A stretch of 64,000 nucleotides of DNA from Candidatus Marinacidobacterales bacterium (GCA_965237955.1 OZ250169.1:6592001-6656000); one strand, 5' to 3'. Positions 34,055 to 53,996 are shown, counted from the first letter of the stretch. Made by a program: numbers and translations. The notes: a model not told the origin generated them from the sequence alone.

Positions 34055-35446
34055 CTACGTCGAGCTCCACGCGGTGAGACCGCGCTCTTCGTCGGTTCCC
34101 GGTATCGTATTGTCCAGGACGAGCGCGATGAAAGCGCCCACTGCCATCCCGGTACGACCGAGCGTATTGCTGACGTCCGCGAGGAGACTCCAAGCTGGTC
34201 CGAAGTCGACAGGGTTCGCGGTGAAGTATTGCGGAACCGAAAGCCCCATGAAGAACGCGAACCCGAGGATGAACAAATTGCGCGCTGAGTTCAGGTTCAC
34301 GAACTGCAAGTTCGACAGTCCGACCGCGGCGATCATCCCGAACATCGCGCAGTACATGCCACCCACGATAGGTTGAGGGATCGTCGTAAAGAGCGCGCCG
34401 AACTTTCCGAACGCGCCGAGAACCAACATGAACGCGGCGCCGGTCTGAACGACGCGGCGGCTTCCGACCCGGGTCAGACCGATCGCTCCGATGTTCTCGC
34501 TGTAGGATGTCGTCCCGTTTCCGGTCCCGAAAATTCCGGCGATGAGACAGCCAACGCCCTCCATGCCGATGCCCCGGTTCACGACCGAAGAGCTCGGTAC
34601 CGGTGCGCCCGCAAGCCGAGCGCACGCGTAGTAGTCTCCGACCGACTCCACCATCGAGGCGAGGTAGCCCGCGAGCATGCCGACGGTCGCGGCCAACCCG
34701 AAAACGGGCAGGCCCCATTGAAACGGATACGGGACTCGGACCCAGGGAGCTGCGCGCACGTTGTCCATCGAAACGTACGCTGGGTGACCTTCCGCAAACA
34801 CGCCGAGCGCCGTGAGAAGGCTCGCCACACCCCAGGACAACAAGATCGCGAGCATGATGGGAAACAGCTCGAACGCCCGATGAGTGCGCCGCATGTATTG
34901 GCTGAACAAGATGATGAGGACGATCGTCAGCCCGCCGATCCCCCAATGCTTGCCCGCTTCGGGCGCACCCAAGTTGAAAAGCGCCAGTCCGATGAGCGCG
35001 ATCGTCGGCGCGATCGTGATCGGCCCGACAAAGCGAAGAAGCTTTCCCATCAGCCCGGAGTAACCGATCAGCATTTCGAAAAACGATCCCGCGATGACGG
35101 CGCCTTGAATGTGTTGAAGCCGCACTTCGAAACCCGCTTCACGCACGGCAGCCATCCCTATTATCGAAATCGCAGGAGCGAGGAACGAGAATGTTCCTCC
35201 TTGGATGAGCGGCAGACGGTTGCCCCACGTCGTTTGTAAAAGCGTCGTGATGCCGCTGACGAAGAACATCGTCCCGATGAGCCAGCCGAGCTCGATGGGC
35301 TTATCTGCAATCCCGAGAGGCTCGCTCAAGATCAACGGGATCGCGACCGTCGAGCCGAACATCGTGAGGTATTGCTGGAAGCCGAGTGGGATGACTTCGA
35401 CCCAGGGCGGGTTGTCGTCGATGGAATAGATGAGCTTTGGCTTCAA
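34055..35446 (-). CDS. NCS2 uracil/xanthine permease
   Basis: GFQQYLTMFG, RLPLIQG, SYSENIGAIGLTRVGSRRV NAT signature. Confidence 0.94.
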   Translation of the reverse strand: MKPKLIYSIDDNPPWVEVIPLGFQQYLTMFGSTVAIPLILSEPLGIADKPIELGWLIGTMFFVSGITTLLQTTWGNRLPLIQGGTFSFLAPAISIIGMAAVREAGFEVRLQHIQGAVIAGSFFEMLIGYSGLMGKLLRFVGPITIAPTIALIGLALFNLGAPEAGKHWGIGGLTIVLIILFSQYMRRTHRAFELFPIMLAILLSWGVASLLTALGVFAEGHPAYVSMDNVRAAPWVRVPYPFQWGLPVFGLAATVGMLAGYLASMVESVGDYYACARLAGAPVPSSSVVNRGIGMEGVGCLIAGIFGTGNGTTSYSENIGAIGLTRVGSRRVVQTGAAFMLVLGAFGKFGALFTTIPQPIVGGMYCAMFGMIAAVGLSNLQFVNLNSARNLFILGFAFFMGLSVPQYFTANPVDFGPAWSLLADVSNTLGRTGMAVGAFIALVLDNTIPGTDEERGLTAWSST

Positions 35447-35579
35447 GAAGCGTTAAAGGTAGGCGCGCGCCTCGACGATGTCAATTCGAACGTGCGCAGC
35501 AAGAAAAGTGAGAGAATGTGCGGCATGGAATTCGCGACTTGTCTAGCCTCTGCGGTGAGTCTTTCTTTTCCAGCTCAGC

Positions 35580-36452
35580 TCAGGGCAGCAGCCCCGTCAT
35601 GTCGCCGTAGGTCTCCGGCCGGCGGTAGCGGTAGAACTGCCACACCCGGCGGACCTCTTCGATCATGTCGAGGTCCATCTCCGCCGTCACGAGCTCGTCT
35701 TGATCTTCACTGCCTTCCGCAAGAAACTGCCCACGCGGGTCGACGAAGTAGCTGTGTCCGTAGAATTTTCCGATGTTCCACGGCGCTTCCTCTCCGACGC
35801 GGTTGAGACAACCCATGAAGTACCCGTTGGCAACGGCATGCGCGGGCTGCTCGAGCTTCCAAAGATACTGCGATAACACGGCCACCGTGGCCGATGGATT
35901 GAACACGATCTCCGCACCAGCCAGCCCGAGCAAACGCGCTCCCTCGGGAAAATGGCGGTCGTAACATATATAAAGGCCGACTTTCGCGTGCGCCGTATCG
36001 AATACCGGATAACCGAGATTGCCGGGCTTGAAGAAATACTTCTCCCAGAACCCGGACGTGTGCGGCAAGTGGTTCTTCCGGTACTTGCCCAGATACTTCC
36101 CATCCGCATCGATGATCGCCGCCGAGTTGTAGTAAACACCCGCCTGCTCCCGCTCATAGATCGGAATGATGAGAACCATTTCGTACTTCTGCGCGTAAGG
36201 CGTGAGCGCTTCCGTCGTCGGTCCCGGGATCGGCTCGGCAGCGTCGTACCAGCGCGCGTCCTGAGACGGGCAAAAGTAGGGCCCGTTGAAAATTTCCTGG
36301 AGGCACAGAATCTGAACGCCCTCCTGCCCCGCTTCCTCAACGAGCGGGATGTGCTTTTCGAGGGCCGCGTCCTGGATTTCCTTCACGGGACGAGTTTCGT
36401 CGTTGATGGGATTTTCACATTGGATGAGACCGCCTTTCACGAGCCTGGCCAT
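35580..36452 (-). CDS. Nitrilase-family beta-ureidopropionase-like carbamoylase
   Basis: LQEIFNGPYFC, YRKNHLP, FWEKYFFKPG, ICYDRHFPE (E-K-C triad); AAAGGAG RBS. Confidence 0.9.
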   Translation of the reverse strand: MARLVKGGLIQCENPINDETRPVKEIQDAALEKHIPLVEEAGQEGVQILCLQEIFNGPYFCPSQDARWYDAAEPIPGPTTEALTPYAQKYEMVLIIPIYEREQAGVYYNSAAIIDADGKYLGKYRKNHLPHTSGFWEKYFFKPGNLGYPVFDTAHAKVGLYICYDRHFPEGARLLGLAGAEIVFNPSATVAVLSQYLWKLEQPAHAVANGYFMGCLNRVGEEAPWNIGKFYGHSYFVDPRGQFLAEGSEDQDELVTAEMDLDMIEEVRRVWQFYRYRRPETYGDMTGLLP

Positions 36453-36797
36453 CGCTGAACTCCTTTTCACTTTTCAGTGTCGCGCGCTGCGCAAGGGACG
36501 CTATCAGACGCGCCCACGGACAAGCTCTCCTTATGGCCCTCGAGCTCCCCGGGCGGCTGGACGCTAGCCCGCGCCGGGAAGCCCGAGCTCGAGGGGTAGC
36601 GTTCCCAACACTCCCAATCTAAATGATTGCGAGACCACGACTCCGTCCTCGAACGCGACGGGAAGCGGCTACAGGCATCTTGCCGCGAAGCGGCACCGAA
36701 GGAGCTTCCCGCCGGGCCGCGGAGTTTAGTACATCACGGACGTTCTGGCAACGACATCAATTTCCCGGTAGTGCTGTAGTTTGATCAAACTGATGCA

Positions 36798-36972
36798 CTA
36801 CCAATTTCCGGCCAGGCGATTGAGTACGTGCTGCGACCGCTCGACGAGCTCCGCCACGAGCTCCGCCGCCCGACGGTTTCGGAAGAGACCAACACCCTGG
36901 CCCGCCCACATCGCCATGAAGCGTGAGTCTCCGCGTTCGGCCACTGCCTTGCGCAACTCTCTGGATACTGAA
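36798..36972 (-). pseudogene. C-terminal remnant of a nitronate monooxygenase-family gene
   Basis: LRKAVAERGDSRFMAMWAGQGVGL...AAELVAEL matches the NMO C-terminus; no N-terminal part. Confidence 0.65.
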
Positions 36973-36990
36973 TGAGGTAACATTTCGACC

Positions 36991-38259
36991 ATGATTGGCG
37001 ACAACGCTCGGCGGAGCCTAAGTATCGATGGGGCGCGGCTCATGCGCCGCCTCAACGAGCTCAACCAGCGGGGGGCACGGGATGACGGCGGCTGCAACCG
37101 CCTCGCGTTCACCGACGCCGACAAAGAAGGTCGTGACCTCGTCACCGGATGGATGCGCGAGCTCGGGATGAGCGTTACCGTCGACGCTATCGGTAACGCC
37201 GTCGCGGCGCGCCCGGGTGCGGAAGACGGCCCGCCGGTCATGTGCGGCTCGCACATCGACACCGTACGCACAGGTGGTCGCTACGACGGAAACCTCGGTG
37301 TGCTCGCCGGACTCGAGATCATCGAAACGCTGAACGACGCGGGGCTCACCACGCGCCGTCCCCTCGCGGTCGCGTTCTTCTCTAACGAGGAAGGTGCACG
37401 CATCGCGCCTGACATGATGGGTAGCCTGGTATACGTCGGTGGGCTCCCGCTCGCGGAAGCACACGCCGCGGTGAGTATCGATGGCAAGACCGTCGCCGAC
37501 GAGCTCGAGCGGATCGGCTATCGCGGCGACGCGCCTGTTCCCGGCGCGACACCGTACGCGTTCGTCGAGCTTCACATCGAGCAAGGTCCGATCCTGGAGG
37601 CGGAGGGCATCGGCCTCGGCGCGGTCACCGGTGTCCAGGGGATCTCGTGGACCGAAGTCACGGTGGAAGGCCAAGCGAACCACGCGGGCACGACACCGAT
37701 GTCGTACCGCCACGACGCCGGTTACGTCGCCGCGGAAACAGCAGCGTTCGTCCGGCGTTTGGTGAAAGAGATGGGAGGCGCGCAAGTCGGCACCGTCGGC
37801 GCGATCGACCTCGACCCGAACCTCGTGAATGTCGTCGCCCGGAAAGCCGTGCTCACCGTCGATCTACGCAACACCGACGAGAGTCTGCTGCAACAAGCCG
37901 AGGCGCGACTCAACCAGCACCTCGACACTATCGCCGAAGCCGAAGGCGTCGAGACCACGACGCGCAAGCTCGCACGGTTCGAGCCCGTCGATTTCGACCG
38001 GCGCGTTATCGAGCTCGTCGAAGATACGGCCAAAGCCCTCGGGAACACAGTCCGCCAACTACCCGCGGGAGCGGGACACGACGCCCAGATGCTCGCGCGC
38101 GTTTGCCCGACGGGCATGGTGTTCACGCCGAGCGTCAAAGGCATCAGCCACAATCCGAAAGAGCACACCGACCCGAAAGACCTCGAAGCCGGCGCCAACG
38201 TCTTGCTTCAACTGCTTCTCACCCTGTCCGAGTCCGACGACATCCCGGTGCGTTTATGA
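36991..38259 (+). CDS. M20 Zn-dependent N-carbamoyl-L-amino acid/allantoate amidohydrolase
   Basis: GSHIDTV, GRYDGNLGV, NEEG, ELHIEQGP, HAGTTPM, GAGHDA, SHNPKE. Confidence 0.93.
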   Translation: MIGDNARRSLSIDGARLMRRLNELNQRGARDDGGCNRLAFTDADKEGRDLVTGWMRELGMSVTVDAIGNAVAARPGAEDGPPVMCGSHIDTVRTGGRYDGNLGVLAGLEIIETLNDAGLTTRRPLAVAFFSNEEGARIAPDMMGSLVYVGGLPLAEAHAAVSIDGKTVADELERIGYRGDAPVPGATPYAFVELHIEQGPILEAEGIGLGAVTGVQGISWTEVTVEGQANHAGTTPMSYRHDAGYVAAETAAFVRRLVKEMGGAQVGTVGAIDLDPNLVNVVARKAVLTVDLRNTDESLLQQAEARLNQHLDTIAEAEGVETTTRKLARFEPVDFDRRVIELVEDTAKALGNTVRQLPAGAGHDAQMLARVCPTGMVFTPSVKGISHNPKEHTDPKDLEAGANVLLQLLLTLSESDDIPVRL

Positions 38260-39188
38260 GCCGCGAGGTCGTCATCGCAGCGGCCCAGCTCGGTCCCATC
38301 TCGAGAAGCGACAGCCGCGAGGCCGTCGTCGAACGGCTCCTCGCCCTCTTGCATCAAGCCCACGAGCAAGGCGCCGAGCTCGTGGTGTACCCGGAGCTCG
38401 CACTCACAACGTTTTTCCCGCGTTGGAGCATCGACGACCAGGACGAGATCGACAGATTTTTCGAGCGCGAGATGCCGAACGCAGCAACGCAGCCGTTGTT
38501 CGACGAAGCGAATAAACTCGGCGTCGGTTTCAGTGTCGGTTATGCCGAGCTCACACCGGACGGGCACCACTACAACACGCAGATTCTTGTCGAGCGCAAC
38601 GGCACCGTTGTCGGAAAGTTTCGCAAAGTCCACCTCCCCGGCCACGAAGAGAACGAAACGTGGCGCAAGTTCCAACATCTGGAGCGGCGTTACTTCGAGC
38701 CGGGCCCCGAAGGCTTTCAAGTGTGGCGCGCGTTCGGTGGCATAATAGGCATGGCCATTTGCAACGATCGGCGTTGGCCGGAAACGTATCGCGTGATGGG
38801 TCTTCAAGGCGCGGAGCTCATTCTCATCGGCTACAACACGCCAATTCACTACGCGCCTGATCCCAGCCAGGACGTTCTCCGAAGTTTTCACAACCATCTC
38901 GTCATGCAGGCGGGCGCGTATCAGAACGGCACGTGGGTCGTCGGTGTCGCCAAGGGCGGCTGTGAAGAAGGCGTCGATTCGCTTACAGAGAGTGCGATCA
39001 TCGCCCCTTCGGGGCAGATCGTCGCGCGATGCGACTCGGAGAGTGACGAGGTCGCCGTCGCGCGATGCGATCTCGATATGTGTAAGAACTACAAAGGCAC
39101 GCTGTTCGACTTCGAGCGCTACCGCATGCCCGAGCACTACAAGCGCATCACCGAGCAACGCGGCGCTATTGAACCGGCCCCGGACTGA
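38256..39188 (+). CDS. N-carbamoyl-D-amino acid hydrolase (nitrilase family)
   Basis: AAAQLGPI, PELALTTFFPRW, FRKVHLPGH, FQHLERRYF, ICNDRRWPE. Confidence 0.92.
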   Translation: MSREVVIAAAQLGPISRSDSREAVVERLLALLHQAHEQGAELVVYPELALTTFFPRWSIDDQDEIDRFFEREMPNAATQPLFDEANKLGVGFSVGYAELTPDGHHYNTQILVERNGTVVGKFRKVHLPGHEENETWRKFQHLERRYFEPGPEGFQVWRAFGGIIGMAICNDRRWPETYRVMGLQGAELILIGYNTPIHYAPDPSQDVLRSFHNHLVMQAGAYQNGTWVVGVAKGGCEEGVDSLTESAIIAPSGQIVARCDSESDEVAVARCDLDMCKNYKGTLFDFERYRMPEHYKRITEQRGAIEPAPD

Positions 39189-39202: not shown

Positions 39203-41752
39203 ATGACGTTTACGCTGAACGGAAACTCGACAGACATAAAGGGTCGCCACCCCCATCTTTTGTCCGCTCTGCGCGACGAGCTCGGAGTGATTTCGCCCAA
39301 AGATGGTTGCGCGCCTTCGGGTCAGTGTGGCTGCTGCGTCGTTCTCATCGACGGGCGTGCGGTCACGAGCTGCACGCAGTCGGTGGACTCGATCGAAGGG
39401 AAAGACATCGTCACCCTCGAAGGCGTGGACGACGCCGAAGTCGATCGCTACGCGCGCGCGTTTGCATCCACGGGCGCTCTCCAGTGCGGATTCTGTACCC
39501 CAGGCATCGTCATGCGCACCAAAGCGCTGCTGGACTCCAAAGGAAAAGACTTGAAGCGCGACGAGGCGGCGCGTTTCCTAGGGACGCATCTTTGTCGCTG
39601 CACGGGTTACGTCAAAATTCTCGACGCCATCGAAGCACTCGCTCGAGGGGAAAACGTCGACGTCGAGCTCCCGCGAGGCGTGGGGACGTGCGGCATCAAG
39701 TACGAAGGCTGCGATCTCGCCGTCGGGCGACGGCCCTACATCGACGATATGCGAGAGCCCGGGATGCTCCATGCCGCGTTGAAGCTCACCGATCACGCGC
39801 GCGCCGAGATCATCGCCATCAATCCATCGCACGCGCTCGAAGAGCCCGGCGTCGAGGCGGTGTACACCGCGGCCGACGTGCCGGGCGAGCTCCGTATCGG
39901 TCTCATCCACAAAGACTGGCCGGTGTTTATTCCCGAAGGCAGCATCACGTCCTATCTCGGCGACGTGCTCGCGATCGTCGTCGCGCGCGACCGTGAGACC
40001 GCCCGCCGCGCGGCAGCACTCGTCGACGTCACCTACAAGGAGCTTCGCCCGTTAACCGACCCGGTGGCGGCGATCGATGACGAAGACAACGCCGTCTGGA
40101 CTCTGGACGGCAACGTGTTGTCGCGTTCGAGCTACCTTCGGGGTAACGTCGACGACGCGCTCGCGAGCTCGGCCCACAAGGTGCACGAGGTCTTCCAGAC
40201 GCAACGCGTCGAGCACGCGTACCTCGAGCCCGAATCTACGCTCGCGGTCTCTCAGCCCGGAGGAACCCTCCAAGTGTATTCGGGCGGCCAAGGCATCTGG
40301 GACGATCGCAATCAGATCGCGTCCGTGCTCGGTGTTCCTCAAAACGCGGTGCGCGTCGAGCTCGTCTCGAACGGTGGTGCTTTCGGCGGCAAGGAAGACA
40401 TGTCGAACCAAGCGCAAACCGCGCTTGCGGCCTATCTTCTGCAAAAGCCGGTGAAGTGTACCCTCAGTCGTGAAGAGTCGCTCCTCATGCACCCGAAACG
40501 ACACCCGATCCGGATGGAGTATTGGGCGGGCTGCGACGCGGACGGCAAACTCACCGCGATCAAAGCCCGCATGATCGGCGACTCCGACCCGTACGCGTCG
40601 GTCGGGATGAAAGTGCTGGAGCGAGCCGCGGGTCACGCGACCGGTCCGTACCAAGTTCCTTCCGTCGACATCGAGTCGATCGCGGTGCGCACCAACAATC
40701 CCGTATGTGGCGCCTTCCTCGGCTTCGGTGCGAACCAGGCGCACTTCGCCGTCGACGGCGTTTTGGATCGCCTCGCGGAGAAAGTCGGCATCAGCGGTTG
40801 GGAGCTGCGCTCGCGCAATATCATCGAGCCGGGAAAGCTCTGGGGACCGGGCCAAATCATGGATGACGGTTGCCTCGGGGCACGCGTCTGTCTGGACTCC
40901 GTGAAACGTGCTTACGACCAGGCGGTCGCGGACGGAAAAGCTGTCGGCGTCTCGTTGGGACTCAAGAACTCCGGTCTCGGAAACGGGTTCAAGGAGATCG
41001 CCAAAGCCGTCGTGCGCTTCGAGGACGACGGTATCGTCGAAATCCGCCACTGCTGGACCGAGATGGGGCAAGGCGTGCATACGGTCGCGCTTCAAGTAGC
41101 GGTGGAAGAGCTCGGCGTTTCACCGGAGAAGGTCCGCGTCATCGTCGACACGTCGCGCGAGCTCGGCGCCGGGCAAACGACAGGCTCGCGCGGAACGTTG
41201 ATGACTGCGGGCTCGGTGAAGGATGCGTGCCGCGTCGCGCTCGAAGACGGCAAGAGGACCGGCGTCGATTACCACGGCGAGTACCGCGTGGATTGGACCA
41301 ACTCGCTTTCCGACGGTGTGGACAATCCCATCATCCACTCGACGTTCGGCTATGCCGCGCAGCTCGTCATCGCGGATCGCGAGAGCGGCAAGATCGAGCG
41401 CGTGGTCGCCGTACACGACGTTGGCCGCGCCGTGAATCCGATCCTCTGTGAAGGCCAAATCGAAGGCTCAGTACACATGGGGCTCGGCTTCGCGCTCAGC
41501 GAAGACTTCCCCGCCGACGAGAACGGGCGTCCGACCAACATGACCATCAAGAGCCTCGGTATCCTGCGGGCGGGAGACATGCCGGAGGTCGACGTGAAGC
41601 TCGTCGAAAGCCCGCAGCCGAACTCGCCTTACGGCATCAAAGGCGTCGGCGAAATCGGCCTGGTGCCGACCGCGGGCGCGGTGGCTGCGGCACTTCACGA
41701 CGCCGACGGGAAGTGGCGCACGACGCTTCCCATGGCACAGCGCGGCAAGTGA
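39203..41752 (+). CDS. Xanthine dehydrogenase-family Mo hydroxylase with fused 2x[2Fe-2S] domain (selenium-dependent Xdh-like architecture)
   Basis: GCAPSGQCGCC, QCGFCTPG, CRCTGY, GGAFGGKED, HPKRHP, EMGQG, KGVGEIG; no FAD domain. Confidence 0.88.
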   Translation: MTFTLNGNSTDIKGRHPHLLSALRDELGVISPKDGCAPSGQCGCCVVLIDGRAVTSCTQSVDSIEGKDIVTLEGVDDAEVDRYARAFASTGALQCGFCTPGIVMRTKALLDSKGKDLKRDEAARFLGTHLCRCTGYVKILDAIEALARGENVDVELPRGVGTCGIKYEGCDLAVGRRPYIDDMREPGMLHAALKLTDHARAEIIAINPSHALEEPGVEAVYTAADVPGELRIGLIHKDWPVFIPEGSITSYLGDVLAIVVARDRETARRAAALVDVTYKELRPLTDPVAAIDDEDNAVWTLDGNVLSRSSYLRGNVDDALASSAHKVHEVFQTQRVEHAYLEPESTLAVSQPGGTLQVYSGGQGIWDDRNQIASVLGVPQNAVRVELVSNGGAFGGKEDMSNQAQTALAAYLLQKPVKCTLSREESLLMHPKRHPIRMEYWAGCDADGKLTAIKARMIGDSDPYASVGMKVLERAAGHATGPYQVPSVDIESIAVRTNNPVCGAFLGFGANQAHFAVDGVLDRLAEKVGISGWELRSRNIIEPGKLWGPGQIMDDGCLGARVCLDSVKRAYDQAVADGKAVGVSLGLKNSGLGNGFKEIAKAVVRFEDDGIVEIRHCWTEMGQGVHTVALQVAVEELGVSPEKVRVIVDTSRELGAGQTTGSRGTLMTAGSVKDACRVALEDGKRTGVDYHGEYRVDWTNSLSDGVDNPIIHSTFGYAAQLVIADRESGKIERVVAVHDVGRAVNPILCEGQIEGSVHMGLGFALSEDFPADENGRPTNMTIKSLGILRAGDMPEVDVKLVESPQPNSPYGIKGVGEIGLVPTAGAVAAALHDADGKWRTTLPMAQRGK

Positions 41753-42762
41753 ATACCACTCCGGGACTCGTCTGCGCCCACCATCATCTTTATTCCGCCC
41801 TCGCGCGCGGGATGCCGCCGCCACCCCGAACCCCGACGACGTTTCAGGAGATCCTCGAGCTCATCTGGTGGCGTCTCGATAAGGCGCTCGATCTCGAGAT
41901 GATCGAGTGGTCGGCCAAGCTCGGCGCGCTCGAAGCGCTCGAGCGCGGGACGACCGCCATCATCGAGCACCACGCGTCACCGAGCGCCATCGAAGGATCC
42001 CTGTCTGTCATTGCAGATGCGTGCGCTGAGGTCGGCGTTCGCCTCTCGACCTGTTACGAAGTCACTGACCGAAACGGTCGCGACGAAGCCAAAGCGGGTC
42101 TTGCCGAGAACGAGCGCTACCTCAAGGCCGGAGGACGCGGCTATGTGGGCGCCCATGCGTGCTTCACGCTCTCGGACGAAACACTCGACGCCGTGTGTGC
42201 GCTCGCGGAGGAGCTCGACGTCGGCGTCCACATCCACGTGGCCGAAGGACCCGAAGACATCGACGCAGGCAAGCGACTCGAAGAACGTGCGCGCGACAAC
42301 TGGATCCTCGTCCATGCCGTCCACCTCGATCGCGAGCTTCCCGGAACGATCGCACACAATCCCCTGTCCAACATGAACAACGCCGTCGGCTACGCCGCGC
42401 CAGCCAAGCGTCCGAACCCAATCGTTCTCGGCACCGACGGCATCGGCGGCGACATGATCGAAGCGTTCCGCATGGCGTACCTGCGCGCCCGCGAGACCGA
42501 CGTTACCTTTTCGCCCGAGACCGCGTGGAGCTGGCTCGAAGCCAACTGGGAGCTCTTTCCCGAGGCCAAAGACGATCGCGTCACCTGGTCGTACGACCCC
42601 ATGGAACCGTGGCATCTAGCGTTCACCCCTGGAGTCCGGCCACTCGAAATCGTCGTCGACGGAGAGAAGGTCGTGGCGGACGGCAAGCCGACGCGCGTCG
42701 ATCCCATCGAAGTTAGAGCCAAAGCGCGGGAGCAAGCCGAGCGCCTGTTCGAGAAACTCTGA
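41749..42762 (+). CDS. ssnA: SsnA-like aminohydrolase
   Basis: PGLVCAHHHLYSALARG, ILELIWWRLDKALD, HHASP, HIHVAEG. Confidence 0.8.
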   Translation: MNTTPGLVCAHHHLYSALARGMPPPPRTPTTFQEILELIWWRLDKALDLEMIEWSAKLGALEALERGTTAIIEHHASPSAIEGSLSVIADACAEVGVRLSTCYEVTDRNGRDEAKAGLAENERYLKAGGRGYVGAHACFTLSDETLDAVCALAEELDVGVHIHVAEGPEDIDAGKRLEERARDNWILVHAVHLDRELPGTIAHNPLSNMNNAVGYAAPAKRPNPIVLGTDGIGGDMIEAFRMAYLRARETDVTFSPETAWSWLEANWELFPEAKDDRVTWSYDPMEPWHLAFTPGVRPLEIVVDGEKVVADGKPTRVDPIEVRAKAREQAERLFEKL

Positions 42763-43845
42763 TGACGACAATCATTCGCAACGAGTCGACGGTTGCGCTG
42801 CCGGACGGATTCAAAACGTCGCCGAAGCCCCTCGAGCTCCATGAAAAACTCCCGCACTACGCTCCGACCCCACTCATCGATGCACCGCCGATTGCGGAGA
42901 GGCTCAGTCTCTCTCGAGTACTCGTCAAAGACGAATCGCAACGCTTCGGCATGCCCTCGTTCAAGCTTCTCGGCGCGTCGTGGGCGACGTTCCGCGCGCT
43001 CGTCGACTACATCGGACGCGATCCCGCACCCTGGGTCGATATCGACGGGTTGCGCGAACAGGTCGCGCCACTGCGGCCGTTCGCACTCGCGGCAGCCACC
43101 GACGGAAACCACGGCCGCGCGGTTGCGCGCATGGCGAAGCTTCTAGACTTCGAGGCGAAGATCTTCGTTCCCGCGGGAACAACCCAAGCCCGCATCGATA
43201 GGATCGAGAGCGAAGGCGCGAGTTGCACCGTCGTCGACGGCGACTATGATGACACCGTGGCCCGCTCCGCCGAAGAAGCCAGCCATCGCTGTCTCGTCAT
43301 CGACGACACCTCGTGGCCCGGCTACGAAGACATCCCCCGCTGGGTCGCCGAAGGCTACGCGACCATCTTTTATGAGATCGACGAAACCCCCGACGTCGTC
43401 TTCGTTCCTCTCGGTGTCGGCGCACTTGGCGCCGCCGCCACGGACTTCTACAAACGCGCCGACGATACGACCATCGTCGGCGTCGAGCCCAAGACGTGCG
43501 CGTCGGTCCTCGCATCAATCCAAAAAGGCGAGCTCGTGACCGTGCCCGGACCTCACCCATCAATGATGGCCGGCCTCAACTGCGGCACACCGTCCGCGGT
43601 CGCGTTCCCGACGCTAAAAGCGGGCCTCGACTGGTGCGTCTCCGTGGAAGACAGCTACGCCGAACAAGCCATGCGCACCCTAGCGGTGTGCGGCATCATC
43701 TCGGGCGAAACCGGCGCGGCCGCGCTCGCGGGCCTCGTCGAACCCGCTAGAGCTGGGCAAAGAATCGACTGTCCTAGTGATTTCTACCGAAGGCGCCACC
43801 GACCCGGCCGCGTACGAACGAATCGTAGGCCGTAAGCCGACTTGA
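42762..43845 (+). CDS. dpaL: Diaminopropionate ammonia-lyase; frameshift near 43743
   Basis: VKDESQRFGMPSFKLLG, ATDGNHGRAVA, MAGLNCG, GETGAA; true C-terminus VLVISTEGATDPAAY is in a shifted frame. Confidence 0.88.
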
Positions 43846-44749: not shown

Positions 44750-46003
44750 ATGACTACGACAGCCCGAGCGGTTGCATTCCTCCTATCGTGCGGCACGTTT
44801 GCGAGCGTGGCCGTCGCGCAGACCTACGACATCGTCATACAGCACGGGCACGTGATCGACCCCCGAAACGGTATCGATGCGGTGATGGACGTGGCGATTG
44901 GCGACGGCGTCATCGCGGCGGTCCAGACCGAAATCGCGGCGTCGCGGGGTGAAACCGTTATCGACGCCTCGGGGCTCTACGTGACTCCGGGCCTCGTCGA
45001 TCTCCACACGCATGCGTTCTTCGGAACCGAGCCCAACGCCGCGTACAGCAACGGGTACAACGCGCTGCCTCCGGATGGGTTCACGTTCCGCGCCGGGATA
45101 ACGACCGTCATCGATCTCGGTGACGCCGGGTGGCGGAATTTCGTTCAGTTCAAAGAGCAGGTCATCGACCGGTCTCGAACGCGCGTGCTGGCGTTTCTCA
45201 ACATCGTGGGCTCGGGGATGAAAGGCGGTCCCATCGAACAGAACCTCGTGGACATGGATCCGAAGCTCACCGCTATGCGTGCCGCGGAGTTTCCCGAGGT
45301 CGTCGTCGGCATCAAAGTCGCGCACTACCAGGGCGGGGACTGGGATCCGGTCGATCGGGCTGTCGAGGCAGGCAAAATCGCCGGCGTCCCGGTCGCCGTG
45401 GACTTCGGGGGACACATGCCGCCCCTTTCCCTCGAAGAGCTGTTCATGACGCATCTACGTCCCGGCGATATCTTGACGCACGCGTACGCGAATGTCCGCG
45501 GCCGCATTGCGATTGTCGACAACACCGGCACGCTTCGTCCGTTCGTGCCGCTGGCGAGGGAGCGCGGGATCGTTTTCGATGTCGGCCACGGCGCTGGAAG
45601 CTTTCGATTCAATCAAGCGGTGCCGGCGATGCAGCAAGGCTTTCCGCCCGACACGATCAGCACCGACTTGCATCGAGCGAGCATGAACGCGGGGATGAAG
45701 GACATGCTGAACGTGATGTCCAAGTTTCTGAACCTGGAGATGCCGCTTCCCGATGTGATCGAGGCGTCGACATGGCGTCCCGCTCGAACCATCAAGAGAG
45801 ACGACATCGGACACCTGAGCGTAGGCGCCGAAGCAGACCTCACGGTTCTCCGGTTGCGCGAAGGCGACTTCGGCTTCGTCGACGTCGCCGGCGGGAAGCT
45901 CGCCGGGAGCCAGAAGCTCGAATGCGAGCTCACCGTGCGCGCCGGTGAGGTGGTTTGGGATCTGAACGGATTATCGCGACCGGCGTGGGACGCGAGTCCT
46001 TGA
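44750..46003 (+). CDS. Secreted amidohydrolase/deacetylase (dihydroorotase-like)
   Basis: Signal peptide, PGLVDLHTH, GIKVAH, LRPGDILTH, FDVGHGAGSF, ISTDLH. Confidence 0.88.
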   Translation: MTTTARAVAFLLSCGTFASVAVAQTYDIVIQHGHVIDPRNGIDAVMDVAIGDGVIAAVQTEIAASRGETVIDASGLYVTPGLVDLHTHAFFGTEPNAAYSNGYNALPPDGFTFRAGITTVIDLGDAGWRNFVQFKEQVIDRSRTRVLAFLNIVGSGMKGGPIEQNLVDMDPKLTAMRAAEFPEVVVGIKVAHYQGGDWDPVDRAVEAGKIAGVPVAVDFGGHMPPLSLEELFMTHLRPGDILTHAYANVRGRIAIVDNTGTLRPFVPLARERGIVFDVGHGAGSFRFNQAVPAMQQGFPPDTISTDLHRASMNAGMKDMLNVMSKFLNLEMPLPDVIEASTWRPARTIKRDDIGHLSVGAEADLTVLRLREGDFGFVDVAGGKLAGSQKLECELTVRAGEVVWDLNGLSRPAWDASP

Positions 46004-46005
46004 TT

Positions 46006-46203: not shown

Positions 46204-46550
46204 ATGTCTATCATCGACAGCCATTGTCCCATCGGAGCCGGCATCCGCTGGGCTACACCGACTTCTGGTACGATGCCGTCCCGGCCGCGCCGCAATCGGA
46301 GAACATCTATCTCGAGACCTCGCTCATCGACATCATGAATATTCAAAACGCGATCGAGAAAGTTGGCGCGGAGCGGATCCTCTTCGGCTCCGACTGCCCG
46401 GAAAGCGATCTCTCGCTCGAGCTCGAGAAGATCGCCATGGTCGACATGAACGACGAGGCGAGGCGCCGCACCGCCAATCACTTGAAGCTTCCGGTGCTGT
46501 TCCATGACGGGACGTTGCACGAGATCGTTTCGGAGATCGATTCACGATGA
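46204..46550 (+). pseudogene. Mosaic of amidohydrolase_2 fragments
   Basis: MSIIDSHCPIG + NIYLETS...GAERILFGSD.P + LPVLFHDGT pieces, with internal deletions. Confidence 0.7.
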
Positions 46551-47917
46551 AGCTAGGACCCACTCTCTCGGAAATGCGCGAGCCGTGGACCATCGATCCC
46601 TCGACGCGCAAGCAGGCTCTCGACGCCAAAGCGTCGGACCCGCTCGACGCCGTCAACCTCTACAACATCACCTGGTACGACGCGGACGACGAGATCCAGC
46701 ACTTCGTGATCCCGCCCGCGGTGACCGGCGTCGAGGCACCCATCGTCGTCATCTACAGCCGCGATTTTCCGACGGGAAGCCACAAAGTCGGCGCCGCGTA
46801 CTCCGTTCTCGCGGAGCTCATCGTCTCCGGTGAAGTCGATCCCGAAAAGCACCGTCTCGTGTGGCCGAGCACCGGCAACTACGGAGTTGGGGGCGCCTGG
46901 GTCGGTGGCCGCGTTGGCTGCAAGAGCATCGTGGTGCTTCCGGAAGGCATGAGCCGCGAGCGTTTCGAGCTCATCGAGAGCTTCGGCGCCGAAATCATCA
47001 AGACGCCGGGAAGCGAGTCGAACGTCAAGGAGATCTACGACAAGACGTGGGAGCTTCGACAGGACCCCGAGATACGCATCCTGAATCAATTCGAGGTCAT
47101 GGGGAACTACCGCTTTCACTACGAGGTGACGGGTAACTCAGTGGTCGAGCTCGCCCAGCGGCTCGGAGCCATTGGGGTCGGGAGCGGCTCGGCGGCCGCG
47201 TTCGTCTCGTCGATGGGAAGCGCCGGTACGATCGCGGCCGGCGATCGTCTGAAACAGGTTTGGCCCGATCACAAAATCGTGGGGCTCGAGCCTATCCAAT
47301 GTCCTACGCTCTACAACAACGGCTACGGCGCTCACGAGATCCAGGGCATCGGCGACAAGCATGTGACTTGGATCCATCACGTCAACAACATGGATGCGAT
47401 GATGTGCATCGACGATCTGTCCTCGGTGCGCGGGCTGCAGCTCTTTACCGACGACACCGGGCGACGGGTGCTCGAGGAGCGGTTCGCGGTGTCATCGAGC
47501 GACGTCGCCATGCTGGCGTCGATCTTCGGGATCAGCGGTGTATGCAATTTGCTCGGTGCAATCAAAACCGCGAAATACTACGGCTTCGGCAAGGACGATC
47601 TCGTGGTGACGGTTTGCACCGATGATATCGGCCGTTACGGAAGCGTCATGGAGTGGCTGACAAAGCAAGAAGGCCCGATGGACGAAGCCGTGGCGACGGC
47701 TCGCATGACCGGCATCTTCCACGGTGCGGGACTTGATTGGATACAAGAAGGAACGGTCCATAACCGGAATACGTGGCACAACCTCAAGTACTACACCTGG
47801 GTCGAACAGCAAGGAAAGAGCGTCGACGAGCTCGATGCCCAGCGCGAGCCTGGCTGGTGGCAAGCACACCAGAGCCGCATCCCGGACGTCAACGAAAAGA
47901 TTCGTGCTTCCCGCTGA
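46547..47917 (+). CDS. Fold-type II PLP-dependent enzyme (cysteine/threonine synthase superfamily)
   Basis: FPTGSHKVGAA (PLP Lys), WPSTGNY, GSAGTIAAGD, IQGIGDKH. Confidence 0.88.
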   Translation: MKLGPTLSEMREPWTIDPSTRKQALDAKASDPLDAVNLYNITWYDADDEIQHFVIPPAVTGVEAPIVVIYSRDFPTGSHKVGAAYSVLAELIVSGEVDPEKHRLVWPSTGNYGVGGAWVGGRVGCKSIVVLPEGMSRERFELIESFGAEIIKTPGSESNVKEIYDKTWELRQDPEIRILNQFEVMGNYRFHYEVTGNSVVELAQRLGAIGVGSGSAAAFVSSMGSAGTIAAGDRLKQVWPDHKIVGLEPIQCPTLYNNGYGAHEIQGIGDKHVTWIHHVNNMDAMMCIDDLSSVRGLQLFTDDTGRRVLEERFAVSSSDVAMLASIFGISGVCNLLGAIKTAKYYGFGKDDLVVTVCTDDIGRYGSVMEWLTKQEGPMDEAVATARMTGIFHGAGLDWIQEGTVHNRNTWHNLKYYTWVEQQGKSVDELDAQREPGWWQAHQSRIPDVNEKIRASR

Positions 47918-48699: not shown

Positions 48700-50010
48700 C
48701 TAGCTGAAGAGCCCTGCCAGCTCAACCTCTAGCGCCGCCTCGGCCTCTTGTTGAGTCTCTCCTATCGCGATCACGTCTAGCTTTCCTGATTCCTGCAAAG
48801 GGCCGACGTTGTAGAGAATGAACCGTCCTTTGCCACTCGCGGGATGGTAGAGCTCACTTCTTAGCCGACTCTGCACTTCCTCGAAGGACGTGCCAACGAG
48901 ATGCTCGGATACATAGTCTTGAGCGCGGTACGGCGGCCGGTTACTCGGGACAAGACGGTCGACGAGAGACATCGGGATGCTCGTGCCGCCCCATCGACCA
49001 TTGCACTCGGTAAACCGCGCGCGCTCATCGTCGAGCACGATGAAATCAAACGAGCATCTTCCGACGTAGCCGAGCTCTTGCAGAGCCGTGGCCACTCGAG
49101 TTGACGCCGTCGCCAGCTCGACAGCAATCGGATGCGTGAGCGGACGACTGCCGACGAAAATCTTCTCGGGTCCTTTCAGGATCTGCTCGTAGACGCCTTC
49201 GACGATCGGCCGCCCCTGTCCGCGCGGTGGAATCCACGTTTGTGTGGACGGAGAAAGATCGGTTTCTTCCCACGCGACAGCGAGCACATCTTCCGCGCCG
49301 TCCCACTCGGTACGCTCGAGGAACGCGCACACGACGTCTTCGACGTCTTGTTCGAGGAGCTCGGCCGAATCGAAAACTTCATTCCCCATGGCCGAAGCAC
49401 AGCGGGTTCGCTTGAGACCGACGCGGGTACACGTCTTGGCGATCTCGCGAAGATGGTGCGCGATCACGCGAGGCTCACGTGCAATCTCGGTACGGACGAG
49501 CCACTCCTTCCCAAGTGTTTGCTCGACTAGCTCGCTGAAGGATTTTTTATCATTCGCGATCCACGTGACCGGAGGCGGCGGCCCGATGACTTTGACGGGC
49601 GCGTTCGCATCGGCTTCCACGCGCGCCGCCAGCTCCCATACCGGCTCGATGCTCATGTAGGGATGGATCAACAAGCCTCGCGCGGCGCGGGCGCGCTCGA
49701 CAATCTGCGCGAGCGCGGTGCCGCAGCCGCAAGCCTTCGCGACCGCGAGAGGTGACGTGACGATCTCCGCAATCACCGGCTCGGGCGAGCCCATGCGCAA
49801 AGCGTCGCGACAATACTCTTCATAGCCTTCGACGGGAGGGGTTACCGCGGCATAAAGGTCGCCGACGCCGGCGCGCACGCGTGCGCGGTGCTGGTACTCC
49901 TCGATCCCGATGATTTTGCCGAGAAACGGAATTTCAGAGACGTCGTCGAGGTAGAGCGTGGGGTAGCCGCTCTCGCCCCTCCAAAGGTGCTCTTCGTAGT
50001 TCGATCCCAT
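48700..50010 (-). CDS. PreATP-grasp/ATP-grasp protein (PGM1-like peptide ligase family)
   Basis: [38 protein letters not shown]. Confidence 0.75.
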
Positions 50011-50029: not shown

Positions 50030-50993
50030 ATGAGCCGTGTCGCACTCTATCTCCAGGACGCGCATCCTCTCGAGGATTGCATTCGCTTCGCGAGCTACGC
50101 CGAGGAAAAAGGATTCGAAGCCGTGTGGCAGGCGGAGAGCCGCCTCGTCCGGGACGCTATCGTTCCCATGGCCGCCTACGCGGCTGTCACGTCACGTATC
50201 AAAATCGGCTCGGGTGTCATCAATAACTGGACGCGCAATATCGGGCTTCTGGCCGCGACGTATTTGACCCTCGACGACCTCGCCCCCGACCGCATCTTGT
50301 GCGGCATCGGTGCGTGGTGGGATCCGCTCGCAAAAAACGTCGGCATCGACCGCCGGAAGCCATTGCTCGCAATGAAGGAGACCATCGAAGTCTTCCGCAA
50401 ACTGCTGCGGCTCGAGAACGTGACGTTCCACGGCGAGTTTCACCACGTGGACGGCATCGAGCTCGACGTCGTCCATGGCCGGCGCGAGCCTAGAAACGTT
50501 CCTGTGTTGATCGGTGCAACCGGAAACAAGATGCTCGAGCTCACCGGCGAGATCGCCGATGGCTGCTTACTGAACTACTGCGTCCCGCCGTCCTACAACG
50601 ACCGCGCGATGGAGCTCCTGACGGCGGGCGCCAAGAAAGCGGGCCGCAGCATCGATGACATCGACCGCCCGCAGCTCATCGTCTGTTCCGTCGACCACGA
50701 TCGCGCCCGCGCCATCGAAGGCGCCAAGGAGCTGATCACACAATACCTGGCGCAGCAACCTCACATCGCCAAAGCGTCCGGCGTCGACGACCAAAGAACA
50801 AATCCACGAAGCCATGCAATACGTCCCCGACGAGCTGATCCTGAACATCACCGCCACCGGAACCCCGGAAGAAGCGAAAGCCCGGGTCGAAGACTACAAG
50901 GCCAGAGGCTGCACCTGCCCTGTGCTTTACCCGTTGGGCGACGCAAAGCTGATGATCGACACCTTCGCCAACCGAGGCACAGCCGATGGCTGA
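50030..50993 (+). CDS. LLM-class flavin/F420-dependent oxidoreductase with an internal deletion/frameshift near 50790
   Basis: [31 protein letters not shown]; C-terminus [16 protein letters not shown]...GCTCPVLYP is in a shifted frame. Confidence 0.8.
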
Positions 50994-51009
50994 CGGCCGA
51001 TGGCCGACG
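50982..51009 (+). repeat. Heptamer tandem array GCYGAYG x4
   Basis: gccgatg gctgacg gccgatg gccgacg; supplies the LLM stop codon. Confidence 0.85.
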
Positions 51010-51022
51010 GCGGAATCCCCGA

Positions 51023-52492
51023 CTATCTAATCATCGCCCTACCGGACTCCCCAGAGTAGTTAATGAACACCGTCTTCAGCTCGGTAAAGAAATTCAAACC
51101 CTCTTCCGACATCTCACGCTCGCCCACTCCGGTCGACTTCATCCCGCCGAACGGAAGCTGCGCTTCGCCGCCAATGGTCGGCTCGTTGACGTGCACCATC
51201 CCCGTTTCCACTTCAGCGATGAACCGCATCACGTGGTTCACGTCCTGAGTGAAAATCGATGTCGTCAGTCCGAACTCCACCGAGTTCGCCATCCGTAAGG
51301 CCTCGTCGATATCGTTTGCGCTCGCCACCGATAGCACCGGCCCAAACACCTCTTCTCGGAAGATACGCATCTCCGGACGCACGCCGTCGAAGATCGTCGG
51401 CTCGACGAAAAATCCGTTTTCGAGTCCCTTCGGCCTACCGCCTCCGCTGATGAGCCGTGCGCCTTCCTTCTTCGCGATCTCGATGTAGTCGAGATCCGTC
51501 TTGAACTGGCTCTCGTCCACGGCGGGCCCAATGTCGACGCTCTCGTCGGCACCGGGGCCGACTTTCATCTTCTTGGTGAGCTCGGTAATGCGCTCGACGA
51601 GCTCTTCCTTCGTCGACTCGAGCGCGATGACACGCGACGTCGCGGTACAACGCTGCCCGGTCGAGCCGAACGCGCCATCTCGGATCGCCACCGCCGCCTT
51701 CTCGAGATCCGCATCGGGCATCACGACCACGGCGTTTTTTCCACCCATCTCGCACGTGACTTTCGCGCCGCGCGACGCCGCTTTGACGTACAAGTCGCCC
51801 CCCACGCTATTCGAGCCCGTAAAGGAAATGATCGGGATATGGGTTGAATTCACGATCGCCTCGCCGACGGTCGAGCCCGGTCCGACCACGACATTGAAAA
51901 CGCCGGGCGGAAGCCCCGCTTCTTCGTAAATCTCCGCGAGAACGGCGGCGGTCGCCGGGGTCAACGCGGCCGGTTTGAACACGACCGCGTTCCCTGCCAC
52001 GAGCGCGGGCGCGGACTTCCACACCGGGATGGCCCAGGGGAAGTTCCACGGCGAGATGAGCCCGACGACGCCCACCGGTTGACGGATGGTGTAAGTGAAG
52101 GTGTCCCGGATCTCCGAGGGGAGCGTCTTGCCGCCCATACGGAAACCGGCGCCGGCGTAGTACTCGATGAGGGAGATGCCCTTCGCGACCTCGCCGCGAG
52201 CTTCACGGAAGATCTTGCCTTCTTCACGCGTCATCAACCGCGCGATCTCGTCCGCGCGTCCGCGCGCGATCTCCGCCGCCCGCCACAGCACACGACCCCG
52301 TTTAGGTCCAGGCGTCTTCTTCCACGCCGGAAACGCCTGACGGGCCGCCTCGATCGCACGCTCCGCGTCGATGGCCGTTGCCATTGGAAATTCGGCGATC
52401 ACGTCGTTCGTGTTCGCCGGGTTCACGTTGGTGATGAGCCGGTCCGATTCCGGCTGAAACCATTTCCCATCGATATAAGAACCGGTGTGCAT
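51023..52492 (-). CDS. NAD(P)-dependent aldehyde dehydrogenase
   Basis: SPWNFP, FTGS, EMGGKN, GQRCTA, EEVFGP, PFGGMK; GGAGG RBS before ATG 52492. Confidence 0.95.
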
Positions 52493-52601
52493 CCAAACCT
52501 CCAAAAACATACGTTAACATAGCGCGGCGAACTCGGACTCTACCGGTGAGCTTTCGAAACTGAGTTGCACTGCCATAGAGAGCGCCTTTATTCTCCCTCT
52601 C

Positions 52602-53996
52602 ATGGAGATCGACAAAGTCATCAAAGGTGGAACCATCGTCACCGCCGACGACATGTATCCGGCGGACATCGGTATTACGAACGGACGCATTGTCGCGATT
52701 GGCATGGAGCTCGAAGGTGCAGAGACGATCGACGCCGCGAGCAAGTACGTCATGCCCGGCGGGATCGACGTCCATACGCATCTCGACATGCCGTTTGGAG
52801 GCACGACCACGGCCGACGATTGGGAGAGCGGGACGATTGCTGCTGCCTGCGGCGGCACCACGACGCTCATCGATTTCGCGATCCAGGATTTCGGAAACAC
52901 GCTCCACGCCGGTGTCGACGCCTGGCACAAGCGCGCCGAAGACCGTGCCGCGATCGACTACGCGTTCCACATTATCGTGCGCGAGCTCCGCGAGTCGCAC
53001 CTGAAGGAAATGGACGAGCTCGTCGACGACGGCATCACCAGCTTCAAGCTCTTCATGGCCTACCCCGGCGTCTTCATGGTCGACGACGCCACGATTTTCA
53101 AAGCGATGCTGCGCACCAAAGACAACGGCGGGCTCATCTGCATGCACGCGGAAAACGGCAGCGTCATCGACGCGCTCGTCGAGCGCGCGCTCAAAGAGGG
53201 CCACACCGAACCCAAGTGGCATGCGCTGACCCGCCCGATGAGCGCCGAGGCCGAAGCGACACACCGAACGATCGCTCTCGCCGAGATGGCCGGTGTGCCC
53301 GCCTACATCGTTCACTTGTCGGCAGGAGACGCGATGGAAGAAGTGCGGCGAGCGCGCGAGCGAGGCCTTCCGGTGTTCGCCGAGACGTGCCCGCAGTACC
53401 TGTTCCTCTCCTACGAAGATTACGAGAAGCCGGGATTCGAGGGCGCGAAATACGTGATGTCCCCTCCCCTTCGCCCCAAAGGCAACGAAGAACGGCTGTG
53501 GAACGGCCTGCAAACCGACGCGCTCCAAGCGGTGTCCACCGACCATTGCAGCTTCTGTATGAAGGAACAGAAAGAGCTCGGCAAGAACGATTTCACGAAG
53601 ATCCCGAATGGTGCGCCCGGGATCGAGAACCGCTTGATGCTACTCTACGACGGCGGTGTGAACGGCGGCCGCATCAGCCCCAACCGTTTCGTCGAGCTCG
53701 TCTCGACGCGGCCCGCCAAGATCTTCGGACTCTATCCGCGCAAAGGATCGATCACCATCGGAGCCGACGCCGATCTTCTCCTCTGGGACCCCAAGCGAAA
53801 GTGGACCATCAGCGCCGATACCCATCGTATGAAGGTCGACTACAGCGCTTACGAAGGCCGCGAAGTCACCGGTATCCCCGACAAGGTGCTGCTCCGAGGC
53901 GATATCATCGTCGACGATCAAAAATACGTCGGCAACATCAAGCAGGGCTCGTTCGTGAAGCGCGAGCCCGGCTCAGCACGAACGCCCGAAGGGTAG
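52602..53996 (+). CDS. hydA: Dihydropyrimidinase / D-hydantoinase
   Basis: PGGIDVHTH, SFKLFMAY, MHAENG, VHLS, STDHC, KIPNG.PGIE. Confidence 0.95.
   Translation: MEIDKVIKGGTIVTADDMYPADIGITNGRIVAIGMELEGAETIDAASKYVMPGGIDVHTHLDMPFGGTTTADDWESGTIAAACGGTTTLIDFAIQDFGNTLHAGVDAWHKRAEDRAAIDYAFHIIVRELRESHLKEMDELVDDGITSFKLFMAYPGVFMVDDATIFKAMLRTKDNGGLICMHAENGSVIDALVERALKEGHTEPKWHALTRPMSAEAEATHRTIALAEMAGVPAYIVHLSAGDAMEEVRRARERGLPVFAETCPQYLFLSYEDYEKPGFEGAKYVMSPPLRPKGNEERLWNGLQTDALQAVSTDHCSFCMKEQKELGKNDFTKIPNGAPGIENRLMLLYDGGVNGGRISPNRFVELVSTRPAKIFGLYPRKGSITIGADADLLLWDPKRKWTISADTHRMKVDYSAYEGREVTGIPDKVLLRGDIIVDDQKYVGNIKQGSFVKREPGSARTPEG

Follow-up and report, generated by a model that had tools for sequence, protein, structure and literature searches.

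A predicted hydrolytic, F420-type variant of the reductive uric-acid pathway in a Candidatus Marinacidobacterales genome, probably non-working in this copy

The DNA under study is a window of 64,000 nucleotides (nt) from a Candidatus Marinacidobacterales bacterium (GCA_965237955.1, OZ250169.1:6592001-6656000), whose genome is a single contig of 8.13 Mb (97.96% complete, 6.2% contamination). Between positions 34055 and 53996 it carries a gene cluster in which a sequence-only reading had named eleven genes and seen a possible hydrolytic variant of the reductive uric-acid pathway by way of 2,8-dioxopurine (yanthine); family scans of the window have confirmed all eleven. The pathway was worked out in gut bacteria in 2025 and is defined by Liu et al. 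(10.1101/2025.04.24.650524) and Li et al. (10.1101/2025.05.19.654654; PMC12507026), with Xdh, ssnA and dpaL as its core. We consider it probable that the cluster encodes a hydrolytic, F420-type variant of this pathway, with a predicted F420 reductase and two hydrolases substituting for three known enzymes, merged with parts of a likely pyrimidine module and probably non-working here.

A coupled core and its flanking blocks

The region is organized as three blocks rather than as a single operon, and the sole tightly coupled part is a plus-strand core, M20-nitD-xdh-ssnA-dpaL, at whose junctions the genes overlap or are separated by 14 nt. The core begins with an M20 hydantoinase/carbamoylase-family amidase (36991..38259; TIGR01879 400 bits, cut-off 204), followed by an N-carbamoyl-D-amino-acid amidohydrolase, or D-carbamoylase (38256..39188; E 1.6e-124 against PDB 8i99), and by an Fe-S/Mo hydroxylase lacking flavin adenine dinucleotide (FAD), Xdh of the Se_dep_XDH type (39203..41752; TIGR03311 812.6, cut-off 830.45). 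The Mo hydroxylase gene directly adjoins and overlaps that of a short SsnA amidohydrolase (41749..42762; PRK07203 267 bits and TIGR03314 242 bits, both below cut-off), whose start is inferred from a GTGA overlap with the xdh stop, and the core ends with a frameshifted diaminopropionate ammonia-lyase gene, dpaL/ygeX (42762..43845; PRK08206 272.5, cut-off 276).

Two genes lie in the opposite orientation to the core: a beta-ureidopropionase-type nitrilase (35580..36452, minus strand), whose top PDB matches are beta-ureidopropionases (E 4e-57), and an NCS2 nucleobase permease for purines or pyrimidines (34055..35446, minus strand; PF00860 E 9e-82, below the pbuX and uracil-permease cut-offs). The remaining block holds a second pyridoxal-phosphate (PLP) enzyme of fold type II, cysteine-synthase-like and with its Lys80 motif intact (46547..47917, plus strand; PF00291), an ATP-grasp gene on the minus strand, a frameshifted Mer-like oxidoreductase of the luciferase-like monooxygenase (LLM) family (50030..50993, plus strand; matched in two frames), an aldehyde dehydrogenase (ALDH; 51023..52510, minus strand; PF00171, below every NCBIfam cut-off) and a D-hydantoinase/dihydropyrimidinase (52602..53996, plus strand; TIGR02033 609, cut-off 393). 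A scan for promoters and terminators gave results at chance level.

The closest titled relatives are other Candidatus Marinacidobacterales (SsnA 87-89%), and two of them have an identical gene order, from which that of a third acidobacterium differs little. As ssnA is flanked by these genes in related genomes too, their clustering is not due to chance. The conservation that the sequence-only reading had left to be checked is thus evident, as the core operon, from M20 and D-carbamoylase to xdh, short ssnA and dpaL, is found repeatedly in Marinacidobacterales and in Acidimicrobiia; a quick SsnA tree suggested that the cluster may have been transferred from the latter.

Genome-wide absences and co-occurrence among relatives

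The clusters of E. coli (xdhD-ygfM, ygfK, ssnA, hyuA, ygeW, yqeA, ygeY, ygeX) and C. sporogenes (xdhAC/DOPDH) share with the window homologues of the Mo hydroxylase, SsnA, hydantoinase and DpaL in one cluster, with an NCS2 permease nearby, and the Xdh of C. sporogenes is likewise FAD-less. In contrast, the genome under study has no YgfK, YgeW, YqeA or YgeY and carries instead the LLM enzyme, the D-carbamoylase and another M20 subfamily; its SsnA is some 100 residues shorter, there is no YqeB and no ATP step, and the host has a heme-copper oxidase. These absences, which the earlier reading had noted for YgeW, carbamate kinase, YgfK and PreTA within the window, hold across the whole genome for YgeW (TIGR03316 best 62.6 bits, cut-off 500), YgfK (TIGR03315 best 37.5 bits, cut-off 835), and carbamate kinase and PreT (no match with the E. 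coli proteins in tblastn, the YqeA and YbcF queries likewise giving none). That reading had named ygeW and ygfK elsewhere in the genome as what would count against it, and neither was found there. A single PreA-like match (28%) looks like pyrD. For YgeY, the best genome-wide match with the E. coli protein reaches 77 bits, and an actinobacterial YgeY gave no match at E 1e-20. D-aminoacylase-like genes occur outside the window, at 29-34% to an actinobacterial UacY-like protein, and none lies within it. Neither uricase nor HiuH nor an AllB orthologue was found in the genome, so that no other urate route is offered, which we count in favour of the reductive one.

Of 587 confirmed short-SsnA loci we have analysed the best 80, mostly from Acidimicrobiia, within a 10 kb range, many of them cut by contig ends. 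This Xdh type is found in 69/80, the LLM enzyme in 50/80, the D-carbamoylase in 31/80 and the M20 amidase in 20/80. Less frequent are DpaL and a YgfK-like protein (13/80 each), the second PLP enzyme (12/80), carbamate kinase (10/80), carbamoyltransferase (9/80), and the nitrilase and the hydantoinase (7/80 each). Recurrent purine-gene neighbours are an 8-oxoguanine deaminase (above cut-off) and xdhABC-type genes. A distinct scenario resulted within the window's own phylum, where 53/301 genomes have an SsnA match: none of the 20 loci fetched carries the D-carbamoylase, this M20 or the LLM enzyme, most have ygeW, ygeY and ygfK, and a DpaL-like match is seen in one only, a weak one (25%).

Co-occurrence was then evaluated in the whole genomes behind 50 of the 80 loci, chosen for long loci and for coverage of all variants. 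The LLM orthologue is present in 37/50, namely 36 genomes at >=61% to the query and a frameshifted copy in one sister (G303) at 84-90% to that of the window, and a YgfK-like protein in 13/50; no genome has both (0/50) and none lacks both (0/50), four YgfK genomes having distant LLM paralogues only (<=49%). Similarly, the D-carbamoylase (30/50) and a carbamoyltransferase clade (>=78%; 8/50) never occur together (0/50). The members of this clade are related to YgeW, fall below the YgeW cut-offs and adjoin a carbamate kinase in the loci that show it; a ninth genome (G334) combines a 42% carbamoyltransferase match with the D-carbamoylase. The M20 orthologue (27/50) is found in none of the eight carbamoyltransferase-clade genomes, three of which have 36-39% matches, and YgeY occurs in 2/50. 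These mutual exclusions are in line with the hydrolytic variant, with the LLM enzyme standing for YgfK, that had been proposed from the sequence. The hydrolase pair swaps for the carbamoyltransferase module as a set, so that its members cannot be assigned one by one to the positions of YgeW and YgeY.

Two further variants were observed among these loci. A short YgfK of about 590 residues (L047-L053, L057, L061, L065, L075, L085, L090, L120) matches the first 400 positions of TIGR03315 only, and its FAD/NADPH part is thus likely missing. In L152-L156, from Acidimicrobiales, two carbamoyltransferases (OTCase-like and ATCase-like), a carbamate kinase, a hydantoinase and a second, presumably threonine-synthase-like gene, with a D-aminoacylase-like gene in 4/5, make up another variant of the pathway.

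Predicted steps and competing explanations

The substrate assignments that follow are predictions from sequence. Xdh would reduce urate to 2,8-dioxopurine, a prediction in favour of which we count a Thr, as in DOPDH, at the site that we take to be bovine A1078. In the place of YgfK, the LLM enzyme would then reduce 2,8-dioxopurine with F420: all nine PDB matches of an intact orthologue are F420 enzymes, the closest being the F420-dependent Mer (E 4e-40), and it reaches no NCBIfam cut-off. The short SsnA, beside which the genome encodes no other SsnA-like protein (32% to that of E. coli; best family SsnA at E 3e-79, yet below cut-off), is predicted to open the six-membered ring, and the hydantoinase (40% to E. 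coli HyuA), likely common to the purine and pyrimidine routes, would take the slot of HyuA.

For the ureido groups we propose two hydrolases, not three. The D-carbamoylase shows full-length homology, with the Glu/Lys/Cys triad and the CNDRR substrate motif present (residues compared with those in PMC11503299), and differs from the solved enzyme in a polar loop, Y199, D202 and Q205, each conserved in 33/35 operon-linked relatives. Characterised D-carbamoylases act on N-carbamoyl-D-amino acids only, L substrates being inactive (PMC11503299 and PMC13011192), and Liu et al. assign the diureidopropionate intermediate as R. The enzyme should hence be a 2-ureido hydrolase, predicted to remove that group from (R)-2,3-diureidopropionate. 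The M20 amidase has intact metal and substrate motifs, and its nearest PDB neighbours are Burkholderia amidases, an L-carbamoylase and an N-carbamoyl-beta-alanine amidohydrolase. A relative, RrCbAA, prefers a beta-ureido substrate and rejects D-alpha ones (PMC10952681). The M20 enzyme should, as a prediction, remove the 3-(beta-)ureido group; the label of L-carbamoylase given to it earlier is not supported, its similarity to beta-ureidopropionases being as great and a beta-ureido role the better fit. All four nitrogens would be freed, with no ATP gained from carbamoyl phosphate.

The sequence-only reading had instead placed three hydrolases in one route. In the corresponding alternative, diureidopropionate would occur in D and L forms, the D-carbamoylase and the M20 enzyme, as an L-carbamoylase, would both take the 2-ureido group, and the nitrilase the 3-ureido group, all within the purine route. 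The nitrilase adjoins the M20 gene in all three sister genomes (G301, G302 and G303), M20 relatives also accept N-carbamoyl-L-amino acids (PMC10952681), and SsnA yields two products that are both opened by HyuA (PMC12507026). The relatives, however, use two hydrolases: 20/50 genomes combine the D-carbamoylase with M20, and 10/50 have the D-carbamoylase without it. The latter ten possess two ureidopropionase-type nitrilases each, one of which lies within ~7.5 kb of the D-carbamoylase in 8/10, a point on the side of this alternative. Against it, a linked nitrilase is found in only 7/80 loci, and most operons with M20 and D-carbamoylase have none. The window nitrilase itself, with the triad motifs LQEIF/YRKNH/ICYDRH and private changes at conserved sites (G198V, D282Y), falls outside the clade of seven purine-linked nitrilases; in G301 it stands beside a TIGR03842-type LLM gene and an NCS2 gene, and in G302, where the core is intact, the nitrilase is truncated. 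We therefore regard this alternative as unlikely; the nitrilase is likely to be mainly part of a pyrimidine module, with a possible function as back-up for the 3-ureido step.

A separate module of this kind indeed recurs in Acidimicrobiia (most of L161-L178), consisting of a ureidopropionase-type nitrilase, a dihydropyrimidinase, usually an ALDH and an LLM enzyme of TIGR03842, often with an aminotransferase and an ABC transporter. The window hydantoinase groups with 17 enzymes of the pyrimidine module (95% local support), and in G301 the TIGR03842 gene lies between the nitrilase and the NCS2 gene; the genome under study encodes its own TIGR03842 enzyme outside the window, at 4608116-4609114. 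Our results suggest that TIGR03842 is an F420-dependent dihydropyrimidine dehydrogenase, a role of which the literature searched holds no account. The ALDH, whose position is identical in the three sisters, possibly serves the semialdehyde step of pyrimidine breakdown. The enzyme families are those of the biocatalytic hydantoinase process (D-hydantoinase and D-carbamoylase) and of the PydA/PydB/PydC pathway, and the window hydantoinase and nitrilase resemble enzymes of reductive pyrimidine breakdown. In contrast to the biocatalytic D-carbamoylase, that of the window is coupled to xdh-ssnA and has the conserved polar loop.

It could be argued from the stand-alone module, with which the window hydantoinase groups, that the whole cluster serves pyrimidines and hydantoins only and that the xdh-ssnA pair is an unrelated neighbour. 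We consider this very improbable: M20 and D-carbamoylase are translationally coupled to xdh-ssnA-dpaL, in relatives they travel with ssnA and not with the pyrimidine module, and the window LLM enzyme, which swaps with YgfK, is not the same family member as the TIGR03842 enzyme, encoded elsewhere in the genome. In our reading, a purine operon and a pyrimidine module have merged here, the hydantoinase being common to both; it and the nitrilase look borrowed from that module, and probably the permease as well. A second dihydropyrimidinase-like gene at genome positions 6786237-6787709, 43% to the window copy, is split over several frames.

The route would end with DpaL (35% to E. coli YgeX) as the diaminopropionate lyase. 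The second PLP enzyme, whose best PDB match reaches E 6e-27 only, is present in 40/50 ssnA genomes and in 15/20 ssnA loci of the window's phylum (L023-L042), where it stands beside ygeY/ygeW without DpaL. It is a candidate alternative terminal lyase. As a strict alternative to DpaL it was rejected, the relation being a trend only (both in 12/50 genomes, neither in 2/50; independent pairs not significant). Neighbourhood counts that take PF00291 as 'YgeX' would mask this cysteine-synthase-like family.

Several observations weigh against the hydrolytic, F420-type urate route. Xdh, SsnA and DpaL all score below their own family cut-offs, and the hydantoinase is not of the purine-linked clade. Neither the D-carbamoylase nor the carbamoyltransferase clade is found in 12/50 genomes. 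On the quick SsnA tree the YgfK/LLM label changes four times, which leaves two supported independent pairs (four on all branches), both in the expected direction (p 0.5); the D-carbamoylase/carbamoyltransferase contrast and the others are weaker. As kin are not independent, the co-occurrence pattern is only suggestive and not significant. The cofactor supply is a further difficulty: CofE and NpdG score above cut-offs, from adjacent genes at genome positions 5685302-5686707, but genome profile searches did not find CofD or CofG, left CofH below cut-off and gave CofC only 22 bits, so that the known route cannot supply F420. A PF01933 match was rejected as CofD, as it adjoins glmS, reads as YvcK and fails TIGR01819, and tblastx with two cofD loci matched cofE and no cofD. 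CofD is found in 44/47 non-sister ssnA genomes versus 0/3 sisters, and CofE in 3/3 sisters versus 1/23 other genomes of the class. This suggests that an F420 precursor is imported; no account of F420 scavenging was found in the literature searched.

The Mo hydroxylase adds further points on this side. By our reading of the motif, Xdh has an Asn where DOPDH reportedly has Val (F1009V), it has no counterpart of Glu606 of E. coli XdhD, and YqeB is missing: TIGR03309 finds it in 0/4 of the genome under study and the three sisters, and the C-terminal part of E. coli YqeB has no match. A match to residues 1-259 of E. coli YqeB covers the XdhC-like part only and was rejected. A selenoprotein is a mark of the selenocysteine (Sec) trait, and Se-dependent Mo hydroxylases are tied to YqeB and YqeC. 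The genome has SelA, SelB and tRNA-Sec, as well as SelD (TIGR00476) and YqeC (TIGR03172) above cut-off, SelD being fused to an oxidoreductase domain (genome 4040831-4043077); yqeC lies beside a MocA-like nucleotidyltransferase gene (genome 6300777-6299340). The nearby selenoprotein from which a selenium supply had been argued earlier did not turn up, as three TGA read-through scans of the window, which were not exhaustive, and translation of 14105-15274 gave nothing convincing. With no YqeB in the genome, and no selenoprotein found in the window, the selenium argument is weak; Liu et al. report YqeBC in all of their cluster-bearing strains.

These features of Xdh, together with its lack of an FAD partner and the heme-copper oxidase subunit I encoded in the genome, would agree with an explanation in which the downstream chemistry is the same and the Xdh of an oxygen-respiring cell works oxidatively, or on another purine such as an 8-oxo- or methyl-purine, and supplies the LLM enzyme and SsnA with a compound resembling 2,8-dioxopurine, with no reduction of urate; the 8-oxoguanine deaminase often found nearby in relatives points the same way. 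Deamination of 8-oxoguanine, though, yields urate, which again needs a urate-reducing step, these motifs are also found among Xdh genes of the phylum's canonical ygeW/ygfK clusters, and no other urate route was found in the genome. We hold this explanation to be quite unlikely, and retain urate reduction as the predicted first step.

The concept is half anticipated in print, and the novelty is lower than the sequence-only reading implied. Li et al. (PMC12507026) show that in Clostridioides difficile the hydrolase UacY replaces YgeW and YqeA. Both systems thus have in common, here as a prediction, that a D-specific enzyme hydrolyses the 2-ureido group irreversibly and so substitutes for YgeW and carbamate kinase; UacY is, however, a metal-dependent D-aminoacylase (PF07969) and the window enzyme a nitrilase-fold D-carbamoylase, and, unlike the genome under study, C. 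difficile has retained YgeY and employs a PydA-like enzyme, UacX. The same authors predict an F420-dependent luciferase-family reductase in Chloroflexota, where a PF00296 enzyme lies beside ssnA without YgfK and UacX, as in the window; that case is a prediction only, concerns another phylum and does not describe the hydrolase pair, and the window host lacks CofD/CofG/CofH. The words 'carbamoylase' and 'nitrilase' do not occur in the main text of PMC12507026, and no D-carbamoylase version of the pathway was found in the literature searched, beyond whose reach lay the 2025 supplements and most subscription papers. For Percudani (PMC12990295), the open questions are in which order the ureido groups are cleaved, with what stereochemistry, and where the pathway arose; this review describes the regiochemistry and stereochemistry of ureido removal as disputed between two 2025 papers, and favours a gut origin.

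Lesions, neighbouring genes and significance

The earlier picture of a working pathway overlooked three lesions of this copy. The LLM gene is shifted in frame by a 44-nt deletion at 50791; its counterparts in G301 and G302 each read through in one frame. The deleted form is spanned, without any difference, by a 189-nt contig of run X2, and an assembly error was therefore rejected; run X1 contains both forms, and the longer, intact form is seen in runs X3, X4, X5 and X12. The deletion is thus a real strain difference. In dpaL, DNA alignment with two sisters reveals a 17-nt deletion near 43740, with a two-frame match to the sister protein, which puts the conserved C-terminal VISTEG motif, common with E. 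coli YgeX, out of frame; this deletion is bridged by none of the listed X1 pieces and has as its basis the assembly and the two sisters, and an X5 contig skips 73 nt elsewhere in the gene. Finally, Xdh has R506L in its AxRGFG motif, where Arg is found in 76/76 relatives covering the motif and in all three sisters, and a 1533-nt X1 contig agrees with the window. We take this Arg to bind the Mo cofactor.

With two genes frameshifted, this strain has probably lost the route. Decay of the cluster as a whole is not supported, as private amino-acid changes are no commoner in its genes than in a flanking cyclodeaminase-family gene; the substitution rates not being raised, the lesions look recent and local. 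In G301 the M20 gene and the TIGR03842 gene are each interrupted by a copy of one and the same insertion sequence, and three frameshifts are present; in G302 (OZ240210.1), where the nitrilase is truncated, the NCS2 gene is not in the adjoining DNA. The route seems to have been lost repeatedly in this lineage.

Between the blocks lie a BrnT toxin-antitoxin pair with a CopG-type antitoxin (44027-44575, minus strand), an EF_0837-type secreted amidohydrolase (44750..46003, plus strand; PRK09237 above cut-off), an Amidohydro_2 gene remnant, a CARDB open reading frame (ORF) and the ATP-grasp gene. The EF_0837-type gene stands beside dpaL in 2/80 loci, those of the two closest sisters only. The remnant (46224-46550) directly precedes the PLP gene, and about 118 nt of it are missing in other runs. 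The pre-ATP-grasp/ATP-grasp protein (48700..50010, minus strand; atlas matches of 0.97 to PF18604 clusters) is divergent from the LLM gene, is missing between the PLP enzyme and the LLM gene in G303 and is probably outside the pathway. A second ATP-grasp copy (62%), beside the final 69 codons of another copy of the PLP-enzyme gene (genome 7861066-7862606), is a partial duplicate of this block. Upstream of the M20 gene, 44 nt of the window (36758-36801), with a short direct repeat at the ends, are skipped by X3, X5 and X8 contigs. Beyond the hydantoinase follow another toxin-antitoxin pair, a PIN domain with a small upstream ORF (54067-54805, plus strand), and genes of a cyclodeaminase/mu-crystallin-family protein, a Nudix protein, an SDR and an Asp/Glu racemase (54827-58239), in an order kept in two sisters; they have a putative role in the pathway, e.g. 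from pyruvate to alanine.

A wider picture, which we think rather improbable, is that oxygen-respiring Acidobacteriota and Acidimicrobiia run a fully hydrolytic urate route in which (R)-2,3-diureidopropionate is the long-sought natural substrate of the D-carbamoylase. In it, the Marinacidobacterales lineage would power the ring reduction with a neighbour-derived F420 precursor completed by its lone CofE, the Mo enzyme would work without the YqeB selenium system, and the PLP enzyme would be a new kind of terminal lyase, whose substrate is D-diaminopropionate or which releases urea directly from D-albizziin.

If the hydrolytic, F420-type route is true, the operon offers a candidate substrate for the physiological role of the carbamoylase, whose natural role is called unclear in PMC13011192 (2026). 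A hydrolase of strict D and alpha specificity within the operon would support the R/D assignment and give a clean reagent; by itself it would not decide which group YgeW cleaves. Li et al. call for alternative enzymes for engineered urate-lowering strains, a use to which the irreversible hydrolase pair may be suited. The wide occurrence of the variant in lineages from the environment that have a respiratory oxidase and lack uricase would moreover argue against a gut origin of the pathway.

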